Notes: generated by a model not told the origin, from the sequence alone. DNA of 64,000 nt from Bryobacterales bacterium (GCA_965116065.1 OZ220485.1:3312347-3376346); one strand, 5' to 3'. Positions 4,016 to 26,072 are shown, numbered from the stretch's first letter. Made by a program: numbers and translations.

Positions 4016-4540
4016 GTGACCACCAACAAGAAGATAGTGATCATCGCCGGCCCCAACGGAGCAGGAAAAACGACATTCGCGACCGAGTATCTGCCCAATG
4101 AGGCGGACTGCCCGACCTTTGTCAACGCTGATTTGATCGCTTCTGGGCTGAGTCCGTTTCGTCCGTCTTCCGTCGCGATCCGAGCTGGTCGACTGATGAT
4201 CGAGATGCTGCGCGGATTCGCAGCGAAAGGCGAGAGTTTCGCCTTCGAGACGACACTGAGCGGCCGCAGCCATGCCCGCCTGATTCCGCTGTGGAGGAAA
4301 CAGGGCTATCATGTGATACTGTACTATCTGAGGTTGCCGACGCCGGAAACTGCGGTTGCCCGCGTGTGGCAGCGAGTGTCGGAGGGAGGCCACGACGTGC
4401 CTGAGGAGATCATTCGTCGCCGGTTCGAAGCCGGATGGCACAACTTCGAACGGATATATCGCGAGATGGTCGACGAATGGGCGGTTTACGACAACTCAGG
4501 GTCGGTCCCGATTCGGCTGACGGAGGGAAGAAAACTATGA
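4016..4540 (+). CDS. Zeta-toxin-like P-loop kinase/ATPase (COG4185-type)
   Basis: 174-aa ORF with GTG start. Walker A 'IIAGPNGAGKTTF', 'FAFETTLSG' and 'SEGGHDVPEEIIRRRF' blocks are typical of zeta-toxin-family/predicted ABC-type ATPases. Confidence 0.8.
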   Translation: MTTNKKIVIIAGPNGAGKTTFATEYLPNEADCPTFVNADLIASGLSPFRPSSVAIRAGRLMIEMLRGFAAKGESFAFETTLSGRSHARLIPLWRKQGYHVILYYLRLPTPETAVARVWQRVSEGGHDVPEEIIRRRFEAGWHNFERIYREMVDEWAVYDNSGSVPIRLTEGRKL

Positions 4541-4755
4541 AACCGGTCGATCTCAAGAACGAAGGATCAAGTACGCCATCCCACGACCCGGGTTTCGTTG
4601 GGGCGACAGCGGCGATGCGAAGGGCCGCCCTGCGGGCGCGCCGTCGTGCGGCGAACAACGGCACCCCGATCGCGGTATTCATGGACGGCAAGGTCGTCTG
4701 GCTGCAGCCTGATGACGAAGTGTTCTCCCAAGGCCATCAAGATCCGGAAGCCTGA
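4537..4755 (+). CDS. Small partner protein of the zeta-like gene (putative antitoxin-like, 72 aa)
   Basis: ATG 4537 overlaps the zeta-like stop (ATGA at 4537-4540). Sequence MKPVDLK...AMRRAALRARRRAANNGTPIAVFMDGKVVWLQPDD resembles small proteins I have seen paired with toxin genes. The function is inferred from context only. Confidence 0.45.
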   Translation: MKPVDLKNEGSSTPSHDPGFVGATAAMRRAALRARRRAANNGTPIAVFMDGKVVWLQPDDEVFSQGHQDPEA

Positions 4756-5018
4756 GTCGCACACGAGGGGACATCTGTGGCAGCGGATGTGAACCTAGCC
4801 GCCACTGCAATGCAATAGCGACGGAGAACTTGCACCCGCCACTATTCCACGGGCTGAAGCAGGATCCATTCGTCAAGTCTCGCCCCAAGACCGAACGTGG
4901 CGATGAGAATCGCTATGATGTGCGCTCTGTAGCATAGTGACAGAAGGCCCTCCGAGTCCATTTCGATAGCTCCCAGTGCCTGTTGCACTAGCAAGTGCGA
5001 CACCAGATATGGTGGTAG

Positions 5019-5240
5019 GTGTCCAAGGTGGACTATCATATTGGAAAAACTACCTTGGCACAGACCTACCACCAACTGCGGCACGACGAGCGCTGCCATA
5101 TCCACGCACGGCACAGGCAAGGAGCCTCGGCCCGCATCATCTCGGCCCAACTCCACGTGCGCCTTCCTCCCGGTCCTTGCCCCTGCGGACTGTCCCTACC
5201 GACCGGAACTCGCCCACTCCAGCCCTCAAGGGGCCTCTAG
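5019..5240 (+). pseudogene. IS30-family transposase N-terminal HTH remnant
   Basis: ORF 5019..5240 reads ...YHQLRHDERCHIHARHRQGASARIISAQL. This follows the IS30 N-terminal pattern (x-L-T-x-x-ER-x-x-I-x-x-x-x-x-x-G-x-S-x-R-x-IA-x-x-L). The expected 'RSPSTISRE..RN' continues only in another frame (APSSRSLPLRTVPTDRN in ORF 4976..5350). No DDE domain follows. Confidence 0.4.
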
Positions 5241-5383
5241 CCCCCTTGACACACCCACACCCTCTCCCCTACACTCTCGCTGAACTCTTCCTTCGCACCT
5301 TCCTCCAGCATCCCTACCTGTCGCACTTCGTTGTTCAATTGGCATGTTGAGAGTTCCTACACCACCGCCGAGGGCAAGTCTTC

Positions 5384-5914
5384 GTGTGGGCGTGGGTTCG
5401 TGGATGGGGCGGGCCCTACGACTTGGTTCTTGAACATGACACGAGAGTCGATTCAATCATATGGAGTAAGATCCGGTTGACAACCACTCAAGGTGGATCG
5501 TATGATAGAGACTATGGGGCTGGAGACACCCCCAACGAACGCCAAGACGGTGGACTTGGTGTTGATGCCGCCACTAGGGACCAGTTGGCCCGCCTCGCTC
5601 GCAACAGGAAGCGGAGGACGGTGGGTCGCAGCGGGCCCGACATTCGCTCCAGATGGTACCCGGAGGAGGTTCCCAATCCGAATGGAGTCTTTGAAGGCGA
5701 GTGCTTCACGGGTCCAACAGCGTGGGAGTTCATTGCATCGAGGCTGGATGCTGGCGAACACGTCAAGAAGGTCCGACTTCACTCACCAAAGGGCAAGTGG
5801 GGATACGAAATGAAGATTGATCTCGGACCCGGCTTGCTACTGTACGTGAAGCTGCGATTGCCGAGTTCCAAGTGCATCATCGGAAGAAGCTTCCATCTAA
5901 GCGACGAAACATGA
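5384..5914 (+). CDS. Putative MqsR-like toxin (ORF limits given; a real start is likely internal, e.g. GTG 5621, giving 97 aa)
   Basis: C-terminal half ...FTGPTAWEFIASRLDAGEHVKKVRLHSPKGKWGYEMKIDLGPGLLLYVKLRLPSSKCIIGRSFH ends with the 'YxKLxx...xxSFH/K' pattern of MqsR-type toxins. Its stop overlaps the start of a YgiT zinc-finger/HTH gene (ATGA 5911-5914), the toxin-first order of mqsRA. Confidence 0.4.
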   Translation: MWAWVRGWGGPYDLVLEHDTRVDSIIWSKIRLTTTQGGSYDRDYGAGDTPNERQDGGLGVDAATRDQLARLARNRKRRTVGRSGPDIRSRWYPEEVPNPNGVFEGECFTGPTAWEFIASRLDAGEHVKKVRLHSPKGKWGYEMKIDLGPGLLLYVKLRLPSSKCIIGRSFHLSDET

Positions 5915-6526
5915 AACAGGACAACACTTCCCTCTCTTCAGTGCATTCCACTGCCAACGACTTCGAGTGTCCAGTCTGCGATAGCAAGGCCGTCGACACG
6001 CATTGGCGTACCGAGACATTCAGTTACGGTCTCCCCGATTCGGCAGTCATGTTGCGGGTCGAACTGCCTTTGCGCCACTGTTCGACCTGCGAGTTTGAGT
6101 TCATCGACGACGAGGGAGAGCAACTCAAGCACGCGGCGGTCTGTCGGCACCTCGGAGTTTTGACCCCGGCCGAGGTGCGAGCGGCCAGGGAACGCCACAA
6201 GATGACTCGGACCGCCTTCGCCGAGGCCACGGCCCTCGGTGAAGCCACGGGAAGCCGGCGCAGTGATCCAGAACCGGGCCTACGATTTCTACCTGCGGCT
6301 AGTCCGCATGCCTGGGGTCATGTCGATTCTCCAGAGATTTTCGACCTTGAGGTCCAAGCCATCCGATGTCGTTAGGATTGGGATGGCGGACCCGCAACTC
6401 CCACATTCGGATCTCAGCGACCAGTTCCCTCACTTGGAAATTAATGCGAATGTATGCTCGGCGGAGAAGAATTTCCATCTCTGGAAGGAATCGTTCGAAC
6501 CGGCTAGCGAACTCCAATGTATGTAA
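5911..6526 (+). pseudogene. MqsA-family (YgiT-type zinc finger + HTH) antitoxin, frame-shifted near 6240
   Basis: MKQDN...FECPVCDS...HCSTCEFEF is a paired-CxxC zinc finger. It is followed by LTPAEVRAARERHKMTRTAFAEATALGEAT (HTH helices) in frame 1 (ORF 5872..6375). The rest of the HTH (EAGAVIQNRAYDFYLRLVRMPGV) lies in the +1 frame (ORF 6239..6526). Confidence 0.6.
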
Positions 6527-8406
6527 CAACGTTTTACTCCTTCAAGGGTGGCGTAGGACGGAGTATGGCGCTTGCCAATGTTGCCGTCGAGTTGGCACAA
6601 CGGGGGCGACGAGTGCTAGCCGTCGATTTCGATCTGGAAGCACCGGGGCTTGAGATGTTCGATCTCCCTCGTCCCGAGGAAGTAACGCCCGGGATCGTCG
6701 ACTTTGTCAGTGAGTACTTGATTTCAGACCAAGCTCCTGCTGTCGATAGATTCATATTCGAATCACCCGGCGTCGGAAGGAATGGTGGAGGTCTCTGGAT
6801 GATGCCGTCAGGTGCACCTGCCCAAGACTACGCAAACAATCTAGCGAGTATTAACTGGGGAGAACTCTATGAGCGACGCCACGGTTACCTTCTATTCGAA
6901 GACCTAAAAGAACAATGGAAGAACGTTGTGATGCCAGATTATGTATTCATAGACTCTCGGACCGGACACACCGATGTCGGTGGCATCTGCACGCGGCAGC
7001 TTCCCGATGCCGTCGCAATTTTTTTCTTCCCAAACACTCAAAATCTACGTGGACTGACCAAAGTCGTGAAAGATATTCGGTCGGAAAAAAAAGTGTCCAA
7101 CAACGAGGTTATTCATCTGCATTTCATCATATCGAACGTGCCAGATTTAGATGATGAGGACCAAATTCTGGAGAAGAGTATAGACTCGTTTAAAACAGAT
7201 CTAGAGTTCAAGAATCATCTCACCATTCATCGATACGACAGCCTATCGCTACTAAATCAGGCGATATTCACAAAAGATCGTCCAAGAAGTCGCCTTGCTA
7301 AGGAATACAAGGATGTCGTAACAGAGGTCGTTCGTAACAATCCACAGGATCGTGAAGGAGTACTTGATTCACTTGCAAGTCATGATTCAATGCGACAGTA
7401 TCCAACAAATCCAGAAGATTGGGTCAGGCAGCAGGACAAATTCAACAAATACTTGGAGATTGCTGAAGAGAATCTTCGAAATGATGGAGAAGTTCTATTT
7501 CAGATCGGAGTGTATCGCAATCGTCTCAATCGCTCCGTTGAAGCCTTGGAACTGTTCGATCAAGCGATCGCGAACGGGTTCCGAGAACCCGAAGTCTACC
7601 TCAGTCGTGCTAGATCGCGGCAAATCAATGGAATAAATGGCGCAAGTGAGGACGCCAAGAAGGTGATAAATACTCCCAATTCATCTCCTCATCATGTACT
7701 TCGTGCACTGTATATTCTTCACGAAATTCTTGGCGATGAGAACCTGATAGATATCGTGCAGTCAACTGATTTCTTATCAAAGGCACCAGAAACAAGAGTT
7801 TGGATCGCTCAGCAACATGGCTTGACCACAAGATCTAAAGCGGAGATCATATTGGCCATAGTTAGCCCGCTATCCGTCGAAATCGAGTTGCATGAGGCCG
7901 AAATTGCAAGACATCTTTTGGTTCTTTGCTCAATATCGTTAGGAAAATTCTCGGAGGCTATCGAAGTCATTCGGGCCGAAGAACCGGACGTAAAAGCAAT
8001 GAGTATTGAAACGGCTTTCAATTACGGAATGGCGCTCTGGGGAGAAACTGAGCAAATCGTTTGCGGACCATTTGCACGTGCAATCAGTTGCTTTATGGCG
8101 AAGGAAAGCCAGTACATGACGGCGAATAATCTGCAGTGCATGGCAATTGCTCATTGGGCGACTGGAAAGAAGAAGGAAGCACACGATCTAGCGCACAGAG
8201 CGCTCGTCAAGATTCGATCTCGCGGACGACGAAGAGAATTCAGTTGTTGGCGATATCTCGAAGTTCAAGCAGATGAATTCGAGCAGGATATGAACGAAAT
8301 TTTTGGGTTGATTGATGGCAACGAAACCATCAAACCGCGCTTCTTTTCGCCATTGCAGGGCAAGCAAGATACACGATCTGCCTTCGCACTAGAACCAATC
8401 ACTTGA
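6517..8406 (+). CDS. ParA/MinD-like ATPase with KGGVGR P-loop variant fused to a TPR-like helical-repeat domain (629 aa)
   Basis: N-terminus MYVTTFYSFKGGVGRSMALANVAVELAQRGRRVLAVDFDLEAPGL has a deviant Walker A whose second Lys is replaced by Arg. Walker-B-like DYVFIDSRTGHTD follows. The C-terminal ~330 aa are helical, with TPR-like units (EALELFDQAIANGFREPEVYLSRA; MAIAHWATGKKKEAHDLAHRAL). The gene is visibly AT-richer than its flanks. Confidence 0.75.
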   Translation: MYVTTFYSFKGGVGRSMALANVAVELAQRGRRVLAVDFDLEAPGLEMFDLPRPEEVTPGIVDFVSEYLISDQAPAVDRFIFESPGVGRNGGGLWMMPSGAPAQDYANNLASINWGELYERRHGYLLFEDLKEQWKNVVMPDYVFIDSRTGHTDVGGICTRQLPDAVAIFFFPNTQNLRGLTKVVKDIRSEKKVSNNEVIHLHFIISNVPDLDDEDQILEKSIDSFKTDLEFKNHLTIHRYDSLSLLNQAIFTKDRPRSRLAKEYKDVVTEVVRNNPQDREGVLDSLASHDSMRQYPTNPEDWVRQQDKFNKYLEIAEENLRNDGEVLFQIGVYRNRLNRSVEALELFDQAIANGFREPEVYLSRARSRQINGINGASEDAKKVINTPNSSPHHVLRALYILHEILGDENLIDIVQSTDFLSKAPETRVWIAQQHGLTTRSKAEIILAIVSPLSVEIELHEAEIARHLLVLCSISLGKFSEAIEVIRAEEPDVKAMSIETAFNYGMALWGETEQIVCGPFARAISCFMAKESQYMTANNLQCMAIAHWATGKKKEAHDLAHRALVKIRSRGRRREFSCWRYLEVQADEFEQDMNEIFGLIDGNETIKPRFFSPLQGKQDTRSAFALEPIT

Positions 8407-8602
8407 TCACCGTTTTGACTGCACAACGCAAGATCAACCGGAAAAACCGCTCTGAATCAAAGAGCATCTCGCGATCTTGGGGTACCGGAAGGTGCGAATC
8501 ATTGAGCGACTGAGCCGAATCTACCGGTGCTCTCGTGAGAAGATGCACTGATGTAGTCACTATTCAGTCCGCTCGATCCAGCATCAAGGAACCGCATACG
8601 CA

Positions 8603-10418: not shown

Positions 10419-11774
10419 TCAGACTCGGCTGAAAACGGACCCGCCGAGCGTCCCCGTGCTGTCGGCGAATGACTCCTTCTCGACACCCAGCGAGTGGAGG
10501 ATGCTCAGGTACATGTTGGCCATCCGCGACTCGCCATCGTGCCAGTAGCTCCCGTGCTGCAGGCCCATGCTGGCTCCTCCGGCGATCAGCGTCGGCAGGT
10601 TGGTCGGGTTGTGTGTGGTGCTGGCGCCGCTCCCGAACAGCACGATCGTGTTGTCCAGGACCGTGCTGTTGCGGTCCCTGTACTCGGACAGCCGCCCGAA
10701 GAAATACGCGACCTGCTGACTCAGGAAGTGGTCGTACTTCGCAAACTGCAGCTGGCCTTCCTTGTCGTTCGCATGCGACAGCTTGTGATGGGTGCGGTCC
10801 AGTCCCAGCTTCAGCGGGAACGTGTCACTGATTCCCATACCGTCCTCACGGTTCAGCATGAACGCGACACTGCGCGTGATGTCCGCATCGAACGCCAACG
10901 CGATCAGGTCGAACATCGTGCGGTAGAACTCCGCCGGTTCGCCTTCGGATGTTGCGTCAAGGTTCAGCTGGGAGTAGTCCTGCTTCTTGAGCGGGACATC
11001 GATCCAGCGCTCCGATGCGATGAGCCGAGACTCGACTTCGTTCAGCGAGGTCAGATACTGGTCCATTCGTGCACGGTCGGACCTGCCCAGACGCCGGTCC
11101 AGATCACGTGCACTCTCGGCGACGGCGTCCACGAGCTTGATGCGTCGACGGAGCATGTCGCGCTCGGATTCAAGCGAGGCCCGGTCGCCTCGAAAGAGAC
11201 GATCGAACACCCGGCGAGGGTTGTTCTCAGCGGGAATCGGCCGCCCCTCCAGGCTGTAGGAGATGGTTCCGGTCCTCGACAGGTAGCCGGTCCCTGCATC
11301 GATCGACAGCACGAGTGAGGGCTGCCGGCAGTGCTGCTTGGTATGCAGCGCAATCACCTGGTCCAGTCCGACGCTGTTGTAGGTGCCCGGCTTGGGATTG
11401 TGCAGCGGAGCACCGGTCAACCACATGTCGGAGCAGGTATGGGGATCGGCCTTGGGCCCGCTCGGGTGATGCAAACCACCCATGAAGCTGAGCTTCTGCC
11501 GGAACGGGCTGAGCGGCTCGGTGGAACGTCCGAAGACGAATTCCCCGCCCTCTTCGGCTCGCGGGAACCAACTCCACTCGTCCAACTCGTTCTCCGCCTT
11601 CGGCAGGGACATTCCGTTGGCCGTATACAGAGCGCAGAACCGACGCGGAATCTGCTCGGCGACCTCGGCCCCCATGGCATCGAGAACCGGCAGCGCCAGT
11701 GCCGCTCCCCCCATGCCATGCAGGAATGCTCGTCGGTTCATCGTGGTGCAACTATTCATGTGATCTTCTGCCAA
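10419..11774 (-). CDS. DUF1552 domain protein (Tat signal)
   Basis: [23 protein letters not shown]... (likely start ATG 11741), then [18 protein letters not shown] and a C-terminal ...GDSTGTL-like end, all characteristic of DUF1552. Confidence 0.85.
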
Positions 11775-17737: not shown

Positions 17738-18706
17738 CTACACCAGTCTTGATTCATCTGTCATATTGCTCCGTCTTGGCTGCCGGATAGCAGAGTTTCG
17801 CTCCCAAAATACTCCGTCACTGTATCCTTGTATAGTCGAATCCTTCTGTGCAGCGCTAATCCGCTTTCTTGCCCAGCAAAGGTATTCGATATTTATATCG
17901 ATTCCACACCAACGTCGCCCCAATTTTTCGGCAACTACTGCGGAGGTTCCGCTTCCCAAGAACGGGTCGAATACAAGATCGTTCTCTCGTGAACTGGCGA
18001 GAACTAGTTTTGCAATCAACTTTTCCGGCTTTTGAGTTGGATGAGGTGTATTTTCCGGCATTGACCAAAACGGCACGGTCAAATCTGTCCAGATATTGGA
18101 TGGATAGGTCAATCGGAAGTTACCTTCGGCATCCTGATCCCAGTCCTTTGGATCTCCATTCACACGATAGGGTGCCAGTACCTTGCGCTTCAATTTCACG
18201 GAGTCCACATCGAAGTAATAGTCGCTGGAGTTTGTACAAAACCATATGTCTTCAGTATTGTTTTTCCAATTTCGTCTTGCCCCTCTCCCTTTTTCTCGCT
18301 CCCAAGTGATTCGATTGTGCACAAGAAATCGCTCTTCCAAGACCGGAAGTACCAATGTTGACGTCCTCCAGTCAGAACAAACATACAGTGTAGAAGTCGG
18401 CTTTAACATTGGAACGATCGCTTCTATGATCTTCTCAAACCAAGATGTATACCTCGATTCATGTAGTTTTCTGAAGTGATTCCCATTATAGTTCTTGGTT
18501 AAATTATACGGTGGATCAAGTATAAGCAGGTCAACAAAGTGATTTGGTAAGTGATCGAATATGTCAAGAAAATCGCCCTTAATTAGCCTGTACTCCAAGT
18601 CTTGGACTTCTATTGATTTTTCAACTCGAACAATACTCCTCGATAGCTCCTGTATCTCTTCTGGGGTACATGTCAGCGTCCGATTTCGTGGTGCGCGATC
18701 CGTCAT
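17738..18706 (-). CDS. Beta-class DNA methyltransferase (N6-adenine/N4-cytosine type), orphan
   Basis: Motif IV 'LILDPPYN' sits N-terminal of motif I 'DPFLGSGTSAVVAEKLGRRWCGIDI', the beta-class order. The gene and its flanks are strongly AT-shifted relative to the window. Confidence 0.9.
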   Translation of the reverse strand: MTDRAPRNRTLTCTPEEIQELSRSIVRVEKSIEVQDLEYRLIKGDFLDIFDHLPNHFVDLLILDPPYNLTKNYNGNHFRKLHESRYTSWFEKIIEAIVPMLKPTSTLYVCSDWRTSTLVLPVLEERFLVHNRITWEREKGRGARRNWKNNTEDIWFCTNSSDYYFDVDSVKLKRKVLAPYRVNGDPKDWDQDAEGNFRLTYPSNIWTDLTVPFWSMPENTPHPTQKPEKLIAKLVLASSRENDLVFDPFLGSGTSAVVAEKLGRRWCGIDINIEYLCWARKRISAAQKDSTIQGYSDGVFWERNSAIRQPRRSNMTDESRLV

Positions 18707-24962: not shown

Positions 24963-26072
24963 CTAGCCGATTCGCTGGAGCCGTGCGATGAACTCGCTAC
25001 CGCGATCGCAATCCACGATCCACTCGCCCACGTTCTGCAACCGGTCCGGATCGTTGATTCCGGCCAAGAGCCCGGCGACCGTCTCTGTCGATTCGGTGCC
25101 GAACTTCCTCTGGGCCAAGCGGACCAGCAACTGTCGTTCTCGCCGCAGCCCTTGCAGTAGACCCTCTTGCCGACCTTCTTGCCGACCTTCTTGCCGACCT
25201 TCTTGCCGACCTTCTTGCCGACCCTCGGCCCGAAACGCATCGAAGTGAGCCTGAAAGCGCTCCTCCAGCGTGGTCCGCAATTCGCCACTCTCTACCATCT
25301 GTTCCATCTTCGCCGTGTCCTCCAGAAATTCCAAATCCACCCCCGTGCGCAGCATCAACTGCCGCAACCACCCCAGAAACGTCTCCCGCAACTCCCGCTG
25401 ATCCTCCGCCGGCAGCAGCCGCCAGATCCGCTGCACCACCTTCTCACAGTCCGCCACCCCCGTGATCCGTTCCCCCGCCGCCACCAGCGACACCGCGTTC
25501 TCCGCCGGCAACTCCTCCCGCTTGTACGCCCCCAGATCCACCAGCACATACTGCTCGCCCGTGAACGCCGCCTCCCGCGGTACCCGTGCCCCCGCCGGAC
25601 GCGCTCTCGTCCCCACCAACTCCGCCATGCTCCGTGCCGCCCGCCAGCGCCCCTTCCCGTTGTAGATCACCACCGCCAGCACCGGTGGCAACCGGTCGCC
25701 CTCCCGCGGTTTCTGGCCCCGCTTCAGGCTCCAGTACAGCCCCACCGCATATTCCTGCACCCGCACCGCCATCCACCAGACCACCTCCGACTGGAACTCC
25801 AGGATCACCAGCAGATGCAGCCATTCCTCCCCCTCGTCCGCATCCCGGAAGCGGATGCGCCAGACCATGTCGCACTGCCGCAGCCGGAAGTCCCTATGGA
25901 TCTGCTCCGTCGGCAGCGGTTGCAGGGTCGAGAAATCCAGACTCTTGATCCACTCCACGCCCCCTTCGATCTGCTGGGCGACAAACTCGCACAACAGGTC
26001 GGTCAGCAACCTCGGGAACCCGAACAGGGCCTTGTACGATGCGTCATGCGGCATGTTCTTGCGCGTCTTCAT
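24963..26072 (-). CDS. Rpn-family recombination-promoting nuclease / putative transposase (YhgA-like PD-(D/E)xK)
   Basis: ORF 24963..26132; start at MKTRKNMPHDASYKALFG (26072). DMVWRIRF...EEWLHLLVILEFQSEV nuclease core, and a C-terminal (EGRQ)5 repeat plus a DUF4351-like tail. Confidence 0.85.
   Translation of the reverse strand: MKTRKNMPHDASYKALFGFPRLLTDLLCEFVAQQIEGGVEWIKSLDFSTLQPLPTEQIHRDFRLRQCDMVWRIRFRDADEGEEWLHLLVILEFQSEVVWWMAVRVQEYAVGLYWSLKRGQKPREGDRLPPVLAVVIYNGKGRWRAARSMAELVGTRARPAGARVPREAAFTGEQYVLVDLGAYKREELPAENAVSLVAAGERITGVADCEKVVQRIWRLLPAEDQRELRETFLGWLRQLMLRTGVDLEFLEDTAKMEQMVESGELRTTLEERFQAHFDAFRAEGRQEGRQEGRQEGRQEGRQEGLLQGLRRERQLLVRLAQRKFGTESTETVAGLLAGINDPDRLQNVGEWIVDCDRGSEFIARLQRIG
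25166..25225. repeat. 12-bp tandem repeat cttgccgacctt x5, encoding (EGRQ)5 on the minus strand; 3 diverged units at 24532-24567 in the duplicate
   Basis: Counted directly in the sequence. Confidence 0.9.

Follow-up and report, generated by a model that had tools for sequence, protein, structure and literature searches.

An arginine-P-loop ParA-fold protein encoded with an MqsA-family protein in a widespread three-gene operon, possibly a tripartite toxin-antitoxin-like module

The DNA analysed here is a stretch of 64,000 nucleotides from a Bryobacterales bacterium (GCA_965116065.1, OZ220485.1:3312347-3376346), referred to in its full length as the window. It contains three consecutive genes, designated A, B and C, behind a promoter flanked by palindromes (Table 1). 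Gene C encodes a ParA/MinD-fold NTPase in which the P-loop lysine is replaced by arginine and to which a helical region resembling tetratricopeptide repeats (TPR) is fused; gene B encodes a zinc-ribbon and helix-turn-helix (HTH) protein of the MqsA family, and gene A a small protein of an unannotated family. Together they make up an operon that is widespread and moves horizontally, with gene C in third place. An initial annotation of the window, made by a model from the sequence alone, had drawn attention to gene C; its observations are confirmed by the present analysis and its interpretation is partly supported.

Table 1. Features of the A-B-C operon, numbered from the first nucleotide of the window.
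Feature	Coordinates	Strand	Remarks
Distal operator palindrome ATCATATGGA	5456..5465	+	8/10 match to ATCATATGAT
-35-like hexamer TTGACA	5477..5482	+	between the two palindromes
Proximal operator palindrome ATCGTATGAT	5497..5506	+	9/10 match to ATCATATGAT; contains the -10-like TATGAT (5501-5506)
Gene A, ~120 residues, unannotated family, candidate toxin	5514..5914	+	conserved body 5564-5908 intact; 5' end probably damaged
Gene B, MqsA-family zinc-ribbon (CxxC..CxxC) and XRE-HTH protein with C-terminal tail	5911..6526	+	disrupted: 11-nt deletion near 6248/6249
Gene C, KGGVGR ParA-fold NTPase fused to TPR-like solenoid	6517..8406	+	629 residues; intact
Deviant Walker A FKGGVGRS, residues 9-16 of C	6541..6564	+	signature Lys10 kept; P-loop Lys replaced by Arg15
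Predicted ParA/Soj/MinD-fold NTPase domain, residues 1-260 of C	6517..7296	+	invariant D37/D39 (Walker A') and D146-S-R-T-G (Walker B region)
Predicted all-helical TPR-like region, residues 299-568 of C, fast-evolving	7411..8220	+	AlphaFold2 secondary structure; sub-threshold TPR matches; TPR Pfam families of homologues
Predicted beta-hairpin near the C-terminus, residues 574-583 of C, conserved	8236..8265	+	invariant S576, W578, Y580 ('SCWRY')

The open reading frame (ORF) of gene C is present as the initial annotation had described it, with the FKGGVGRS motif at its N-terminus and with VLAVDFDLEAPGL and DYVFIDSRTGHTD at residues 33-45 and 141-153; in all six frames of the window, FKGGVGRS is the sole occurrence of KGG.G[RK][ST]. 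The alignment of homologues bears out the reading of the motif, with the signature lysine retained as K10 and the lysine of GK[ST] exchanged for R15. The NCBIfam model NF047398 (AAA_KGGVGR) matches residues 2-187 over profile positions 3-189 of 190 with 172.4 bits (cutoff 90; E 1.3e-50), and homologues of gene C number more than 6,900 protein matches, so the assignment is not a chance one and the catalogued KGGVGR family that the initial annotation had mentioned does exist. Pfam places CbiA/AAA_31 at the N-terminus. An AlphaFold2 model of gene C (predicted local distance difference test, pLDDT, 82.9; predicted TM-score, pTM, 0.77) comprises an alpha/beta NTPase domain followed by approximately 17 helices (residues 259-568), the hairpin listed in Table 1 and a final helix. 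In a Foldseek search the N-terminal domain of the model resembles Soj (6iub; TM-score normalised to the target, TMt, 0.72), ParA (8ray), MinD (6riq), McdA and NifH, with TMt ranging from 0.65 to 0.75, in agreement with the proposed ParA/MinD fold, just as the helices of the model agree with the proposed helical tail. TPR matches of the window protein to Pfam are all below the gathering score (TPR_2 at 19.9 against 27, and others), and many homologues carry precomputed TPR families. The two parts of the protein evolve at different rates: mean pairwise identity is 61% in the NTPase domain and 32% in the C-terminal region, within which most of the invariant positions fall in the last ~120 residues. 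The gene is AT-rich, as had been remarked, with a GC content of 0.469 against 0.625 in its flanks and of 0.41-0.50 over 6900-8500.

The arginine is a character of the family. KGGVGR[TS] is found in all 87 homologues with a called N-terminus among the best 120, and the P-loop arginine in 83 of 84 loci, the remaining one having cysteine. The other 33 of the best 120 homologues have been called from an internal methionine, Met17 (MALANV...), and so lose the KGGVGR P-loop; the deposited version of the window protein (P0001, 613 residues) also starts there, as do P0004, P0008 and others, and gene models that start at Met17 are without a Pfam ATPase annotation. These starts without a P-loop are an annotation artefact. 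Judged by its distribution among homologous sequences, the arginine is neither a local substitution nor an error, two possibilities that the initial annotation had left standing. In an alignment of 35 C sequences K10, G11-G14, R15, D37, D39, D146-S-R-T-G and the segment NVPDLDDE are invariant, and because of this invariance the residues for nucleotide binding and for a ParA-type sandwich dimer all appear to be under selection, with arginine in the place of lysine. Exchange of the P-loop lysine for arginine in P-loop ATPases usually retains nucleotide binding and loses hydrolysis, as in Rad51 K191R and RecA K72R. By analogy, C may likewise bind nucleotide without hydrolysing it.

A scan of species representatives, with one genome per species, gave 566 confirmed loci, 80 of which were fetched; the ORFs of the fetched loci were clustered, and the loci were also searched with purpose-built hidden Markov models (HMMs) for A and B. 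Gene B, the homologue of window ORF 5872..6375, lies directly upstream of gene C in 83 of 83 loci, and gene A, the homologue of window ORF 5384..5914, lies upstream of B in 80 of the 83. All three genes share one strand, their stop and start codons abutting or overlapping, and independent gene calls on another contig give lengths of 119, 186 and 616 residues for A, B and C. Every other neighbour is common to 13 loci at most, and the nearest flanking ORFs (136 scanned) are mixed, mostly metabolic, with few that are defence-like. The expectation of a stand-alone NTPase-plus-sensor protein without a partner has to be abandoned, since C is the last gene of a conserved A-B-C operon. The absence of ParB and MinE genes that the initial annotation had noted is borne out among the neighbours, and gene C lies outside core cell-division and polysaccharide-export loci, a location that would have counted against the initial interpretation. 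The three genes are inherited together, the pairwise identities of A, B and C co-diverging across 61 intact loci with a Pearson r of 0.81-0.86. Intact copies of the operon are available in cultured strains of Pandoraea pneumonica (LMG 31114), Colwellia marinimaniae (MTCD1), Pyxidicoccus fallax (DSM 14698), Rhizobium gallicum (R602, plasmid pRgalR602b), Rhizobium phaseoli and Massilia forsythiae.

Gene B belongs to the MqsA family. Its homologues score 70-76 bits against TIGR03830 (cutoff 61.8) in four of five cases tested, PF15731 matches 31 of 31, and the gene B profile matches Escherichia coli MqsA (PDB 3gn5) over its full length and also HigA2. The CxxC...CxxC pairs and the HTH motif G.A..RWE are invariant. 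Beyond the MqsA core there is a tail of ~45 residues that is poorly conserved save for three anchors, F171, F187 and L189. Gene A has 1,341 homologues. Our own HMM for A matches the window at 5564-5908 with an E-value of 1.4e-31, and all the invariant residues of the family (W, P, F, W, P, YxK and GRSFH) are retained there. The AlphaFold2 model of A (pLDDT 85.6, pTM 0.80) consists of two helices and a four-stranded antiparallel sheet that ends at the invariant GRSFH.

In 70 of 76 loci the 250 bp upstream of gene A contain the palindrome ATCATATGAT (10 bp, at most one mismatch), as a rule twice, ~41 bp apart and typically at -94 and -53. In the same loci there are 109 sites in 19.6 kb of upstream sequence and 17 in 1.54 Mb elsewhere, a 504-fold enrichment. 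The case for an operator rests on this positional conservation across loci; inside the window alone there is no enrichment of the palindrome, with eight matches against 12 expected at up to two mismatches. The aligned promoters have a common order of palindrome, TTGACA, 17-18 nucleotides, palindrome with TATGAT, GGAGG and ATG; the TTGACA is common to the window and to loci L001, L004 and L005 (alignment A6), and TTGACA plus TATGAT in the window match the promoter consensus at 11 of 12 positions. By analogy, this layout is that of an autoregulated toxin-antitoxin promoter, and B is the probable ligand of the ATCATATGAT palindromes.

The operon is carried by Acidobacteriota, Binatia, Latescibacterota, Spirochaetia, Alpha-, Beta- and Gammaproteobacteria, Planctomycetota and Myxococcota. 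In 78 of 81 loci gene C is AT-richer than its flanks (median difference, -6 points), and full-length copies occur on five plasmids, where RefSeq names the proteins "type II TA system antitoxin MqsA family protein" and "ParA family protein" or "AAA family ATPase". A 23-kb Massilia plasmid encodes a separate canonical ParA and a partition determinant beside the Arg-P-loop protein, which is therefore not the partition ATPase of that plasmid.

More distant KGG[VTSA]GR[ST] proteins were found in several contexts by tblastn against plasmids. In one locus (L083) a KGG.GR ATPase is fused to a Toll/interleukin-1 receptor (TIR) domain within a TIR-rich locus; in another (L085) it is encoded beside a caspase-family gene and in a third (L086) behind an HTH gene. 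This diversity of fusions came from the plasmid search; in the representative library, the best 150 matches to the NTPase domain all had the same architecture as gene C. The PADLOC candidate system PDC-M28 also belongs here. It consists of three genes encoding proteins of ~180 (A), ~440 (B, with the motif near residue 137) and ~490 (C) residues, present as triads at L087 2566-5896, L088 2629-5898 and L089 2593-6007. PDC-M28 belongs to bacteriophage exclusion type 2 (BREX-2) loci in both Streptomyces and Thiodictyon: on a Streptomyces plasmid it is situated between pglW and pglX, and on a Thiodictyon plasmid it is downstream of pglX genes and beside genes for a KAP NTPase and a 'phage resistance protein'. 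It is found on an Enterobacter IncF plasmid as well. Membership of the window operon in PDC-M28 was considered and rejected: only the NTPase domain matches, and PDC-M28A and PDC-M28C are absent from the window and from A-B-C operons.

The copy of the operon in the window is decaying, as its reading frames indicate, with B frameshifted, A without an in-frame start and C alone intact. A DNA alignment with locus L001 locates in gene B the 11-nucleotide deletion of Table 1, which takes out 'LSRW' of the HTH and puts the remainder of the gene out of frame; the HMM for B accordingly matches in two segments, 5911-6258 and 6248-6487, in different frames. In gene A the only ATG after the promoter, at 5514, is one nucleotide out of frame, and there is none at the conserved start; relative to its homologues the gene has one additional nucleotide, beside a run of five C (alignment A6), and the TTG at 5477, although in frame, belongs to the -35 box.

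We put at about even the chance that genes A, B and C form a tripartite toxin-antitoxin-like module, with C not a partition ATPase but a regulator or sensor of the antitoxin that is gated by nucleotide. In such a module, A would be the candidate toxin, most likely neutralised by B through the N-terminal domain of B, and B would most likely repress the operon by binding the pair of ATCATATGAT palindromes that overlaps the -35/-10 promoter. On binding ATP, C would form a long-lived sandwich dimer with slow hydrolysis or none, and in this ATP-bound state it would control B as its regulatory or sensor subunit. C would take the place that a SecB-like chaperone occupies in toxin-antitoxin-chaperone (TAC) systems, probably as a trigger or sensor and not as an obligatory protector. 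Evidence in favour of this module comes from features observed directly, namely the conserved operon, the MqsA-family assignment of B with its additional tail, the operator over the promoter, the co-divergence and mobility of the three genes and the invariance of the nucleotide site of C. Further evidence comes from the gene order, which would be toxin-first by analogy with mqsRA and TAC, and from the wider KGG.GR family, which is found in conflict contexts (the TIR fusion, the caspase neighbour and PDC-M28 in BREX-2). The distribution of damage among the genes points the same way. Of the 83 loci, 10 have gene A split, partial or undetected, two have a disrupted B, and 11 have a truncated or interrupted C. 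For A the 10 disruptions compare with 2.95 expected from its length (3.4-fold per bp, p = 2.8e-4), or six with 1.8 in a conservative count (p = 0.005), counts in which frameshifts of metagenome-assembled genomes may include assembly errors and in which some loci are mutually related. An excess loss of A with retention of B is the pattern to be expected if the toxin is costly and the antitoxin is needed. The truncations of C fall after residues ~280-380, keeping the NTPase domain and removing the TPR region, and that they are tolerated suggests a trigger rather than a protector.

Several results weigh against this reading, as does the uncertainty just attached to the disruption counts. The relationship of A to any toxin is undetectable by the searches of sequence, profile and predicted fold that we made: none of the 1,341 homologues has a Pfam domain; A has no match in Pfam, NCBIfam, PADLOC, PHROGs or the sequences of the PDB; hhalign of A with E. 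coli MqsR gives a probability of 0.6%, which is not significant; and a Foldseek search of the model against PDB and BFVD returns nothing under an E-value of 0.1, the best match with a BECR fold being the RelE-like toxin BrnT at an E-value of only 1.2. In most loci with a damaged C, A still looks intact, and the loss of C under these circumstances argues against C as an obligatory protector of the antitoxin, that is, against strict chaperone addiction. Co-evolution of the B tail with parts of C was not seen in a coarse, low-power test (partial r of 0.04 and 0.00), and a contact of the tail with the TPR or NTPase region is consequently something that we infer. No phage genome matched the module, and no excess of defence genes was seen among the 136 neighbouring ORFs, a count without a genome baseline; with neighbours that are mainly metabolic and no carriage by phages, a role in defence is unsupported for the A-B-C subfamily.

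Other divisions of labour among the three proteins can be envisaged. C itself might be the effector, a catalytically crippled mimic of MinD or ParA that, once set free or activated, would poison cell division or the segregation of chromosomes, with B as its regulator or antidote and A as an accessory or sensor. Inactive MinD/ParA-like domains have indeed been classed among cell-division-related 'effector' domains (Kaur et al., PMC7159879), C retains K10, the residue for dimerisation, along with an entire nucleotide pocket, and A is without a toxin signature. We nevertheless regard C as an unlikely effector, as the MqsA-type order of a small gene followed by the antitoxin gene points to A as the partner of B, the excess of disruption relative to length is in A and not in C, and truncations that spare the NTPase and drop the TPR region would be unexpected if a toxic NTPase were being inactivated. 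It is also formally conceivable that there is no toxin and that the operon is a regulatory module controlling itself or a stress response, in which B is the repressor, C a nucleotide-dependent co-regulator in the manner of type Ia ParA, and A a small adaptor. Such a module would account for the conserved operator pair over the promoter, the HTH protein and the want of a demonstrable toxin. It would leave without obvious reason the horizontal spread of an AT-rich island to no fewer than seven phyla, nor would A be expected to suffer disruptions in excess as a toxin gene would, and MqsA-family proteins are characteristically the antitoxins of toxin-first operons; we doubt that the operon is of this kind.

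A function in the partition or positioning of a mobile element, with C as a ParA motor, B as a centromere-binding adaptor and the palindromes as centromere and operator in the manner of type Ib par loci, is very improbable. The ParA fold, an HTH partner with repeated palindromes upstream, the occurrence on some plasmids and the RefSeq name 'ParA family protein' would be in keeping with it. The arginine present in the P-loop of essentially all members speaks against it, given that partition needs a cycle of hydrolysis, which P-loop ATPases generally lose when the lysine is exchanged for arginine, as do the presence of two palindromes only, a gene order with an additional gene A that is unlike par loci, the chromosomal location of most copies at unrelated sites without a replicon or integrase, and the Massilia plasmid with its own ParA and partition pair. 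Scores of C against the equivalog models are also far below cutoff, at 24.9 bits for ParA_partition (cutoff 180) and 24 for MinD (cutoff 213). The initial annotation had inferred a nucleotide-dependent switch or scaffold with an architecture echoing that of immune sensors of the signal transduction ATPases with numerous domains (STAND) and Avs type, which would make C a stand-alone immune sensor on a ParA fold with its effector elsewhere. What stands of this comparison is a loose architectural likeness, an NTPase joined to a fast-evolving repeat region, to which may be added the match of PADLOC PDC-M28B to the NTPase domain and relatives that are fused to TIR or embedded in BREX. What does not stand is the sensor acting alone: B precedes C in every locus, the A and C components of PDC-M28 are absent, and C has neither an effector domain nor any Pfam, NCBIfam or PADLOC match to the STAND families NACHT, NB-ARC and AP-ATPase, its NTPase being of the SIMIBI/ParA type; defence genes are few among the nearest neighbours, with no clear excess, again without a genome baseline. 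A STAND/Avs-like sensor is therefore improbable in our view.

A more ambitious form of the toxin-antitoxin-like reading can be offered tentatively, as possible but rather less than probable. The operon would represent a new tripartite class of toxin-antitoxin or abortive-infection system in which an Arg-P-loop NTPase with a rapidly evolving TPR sensor replaces SecB. On a cue derived from an invader or set by nucleotide levels, C, dimerising with ATP but without turnover, would bind the C-terminal tail of the MqsA-type antitoxin or let go of it. A toxin whose fold has no solved relative would thereby be freed, and the KGG.GR proteins would be a family of pseudo-ATPase switches across conflict systems, including the TIR fusions and the BREX-embedded PDC-M28. 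If the toxin-antitoxin-like reading is true, C would be a new kind of third component in toxin-antitoxin biology and a natural NTPase with a lysine-to-arginine P-loop serving as a switch and not as a motor, and A would provide a new candidate toxin fold. For annotation, C should not be named a partition ParA, gene models starting at Met17 lose the P-loop, and gene A is often uncalled. The domain has already been catalogued, whereas the operon, its operator and the partner family appear to be undescribed in the literature searched, which held nothing relevant on KGGVGR, PDC-M28, the partner family A or the operon.

Some further observations concern the operon in other genomes and the remainder of the window. 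In a Vicinamibacterales locus (L045; 6704-6880 and 10049-11716) the ATPase gene is split at codon ~59 by an insert of ~3.2 kb, and in an Azotimanducaceae locus (L043; 8606-10001) ~1.4 kb separates genes B and C. Short forms of C (residues 1-280, 1-300 or 1-370) were considered as a distinct architecture and rejected, as they arise by truncation in a small number of related genomes, with unrelated genes downstream of them. In the window, a small P-loop kinase ORF resembling Zeta_toxin/AAA_33 (PF06414, E 2.6e-11) lies at 4016-4540 (+), with an overlapping ORF at 4435-4755 (+), between a sulfatase gene and the A-B-C operon; an antitoxin partner for it was not identified. Two toxin-antitoxin-like modules may therefore lie within 3.9-8.5 kb, a stretch bounded by two genes of core-genome appearance. 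No convincing gene was found at 4800-5380, where the GC skew reaches -0.44 (5100-5299) and an imperfect 26-nucleotide inverted repeat (4977-5002 and 5319-5344) encloses 316 nucleotides; this segment could be the remnant of a mobile element or the boundary of an island. Searches around 3.7-8.8 kb for tRNA genes, att-like repeats and Rfam elements gave nothing convincing. A second AT-rich patch (GC 0.47 against ~0.60), at 17738-18706 (-), encodes an N6/N4 DNA methyltransferase (PF01555; PADLOC MTase_II, E 2e-62); no ORF of the size of a restriction enzyme adjoins it, so it looks to be an orphan or the remnant methylase of a restriction-modification system. ARAGORN calls a 93-nucleotide tRNA-Ala(GGC) at 10593-10685 (+), opposite and inside a DUF1552 gene (10419-11774, -), which is probably a false positive. 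The strongest GC skew among the 1-kb bins of the window (-0.326) is at 25001-26000, where the GC content is 0.65.

Comparison with known families and systems places the operon between several of them. NF047398 shares with C the defining KGGVGR motif in the N-terminal 187 residues, but it is a domain name only, and the TPR tail and the A-B-C operon are outside its definition. Likewise, PDC-M28B has the Arg-P-loop ParA-like domain with KGGVGRS (E 3.6e-35 with C, over profile positions 131-360), preceded by a 130-residue N-terminal domain that C does not have, and it is without TPR. C has in common with ParA, Soj and MinD the SIMIBI fold, the signature lysine, the Walker A' aspartates and the Walker B aspartate, and differs from them in the P-loop arginine, the TPR-like extension of 370 residues, and the lack of a ParB or MinE partner and of a partition context. 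Predicted-inactive MinD/ParA-like domains are known from the ternary vWA-MoxR (VMAP) conflict systems (Kaur, Burroughs, Iyer, Aravind 2020, PMC7159879). There, as in C, a MinD/ParA-like domain that is predicted to be catalytically impaired serves as a module of a conflict system; vWA, MoxR and VMAP genes are absent from the window and from the neighbour sets.

The closest likenesses of the operon as a whole are to MqsR/MqsA and TAC. As in E. coli mqsRA, a candidate toxin gene precedes a gene for a zinc-ribbon and XRE-HTH antitoxin, and a palindromic operator lies over the promoter; in contrast to mqsRA, A is not MqsR by sequence or profile, the operator sequence is another one, and the tail of B and the whole of gene C are additional. 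In TAC systems, antitoxins of the HigA, HicB or MqsA type have a C-terminal chaperone addiction (ChAD) tail of ~40 residues, to which the product of the third gene, a SecB-like chaperone, binds; in a Vibrio TAC the ChAD tail of MqsA is at residues 136-176 (Bordes et al. 2016, PMC5105189). In a TAC system that acts in phage defence, a phage protein competes for the ChAD-binding site (Mets et al. 2024 preprint). The third gene of the A-B-C operon encodes a ParA-fold NTPase-TPR protein and not SecB, the first gene has no recognisable MqsR or HigB, and loss of C appears to be tolerated with A intact. What the A-B-C operon has in common with TAC is the order of a small protein, an MqsA-type antitoxin and a third factor, together with a C-terminal extension of ~40-45 residues on the MqsA-type protein that retains conserved aromatic anchors.

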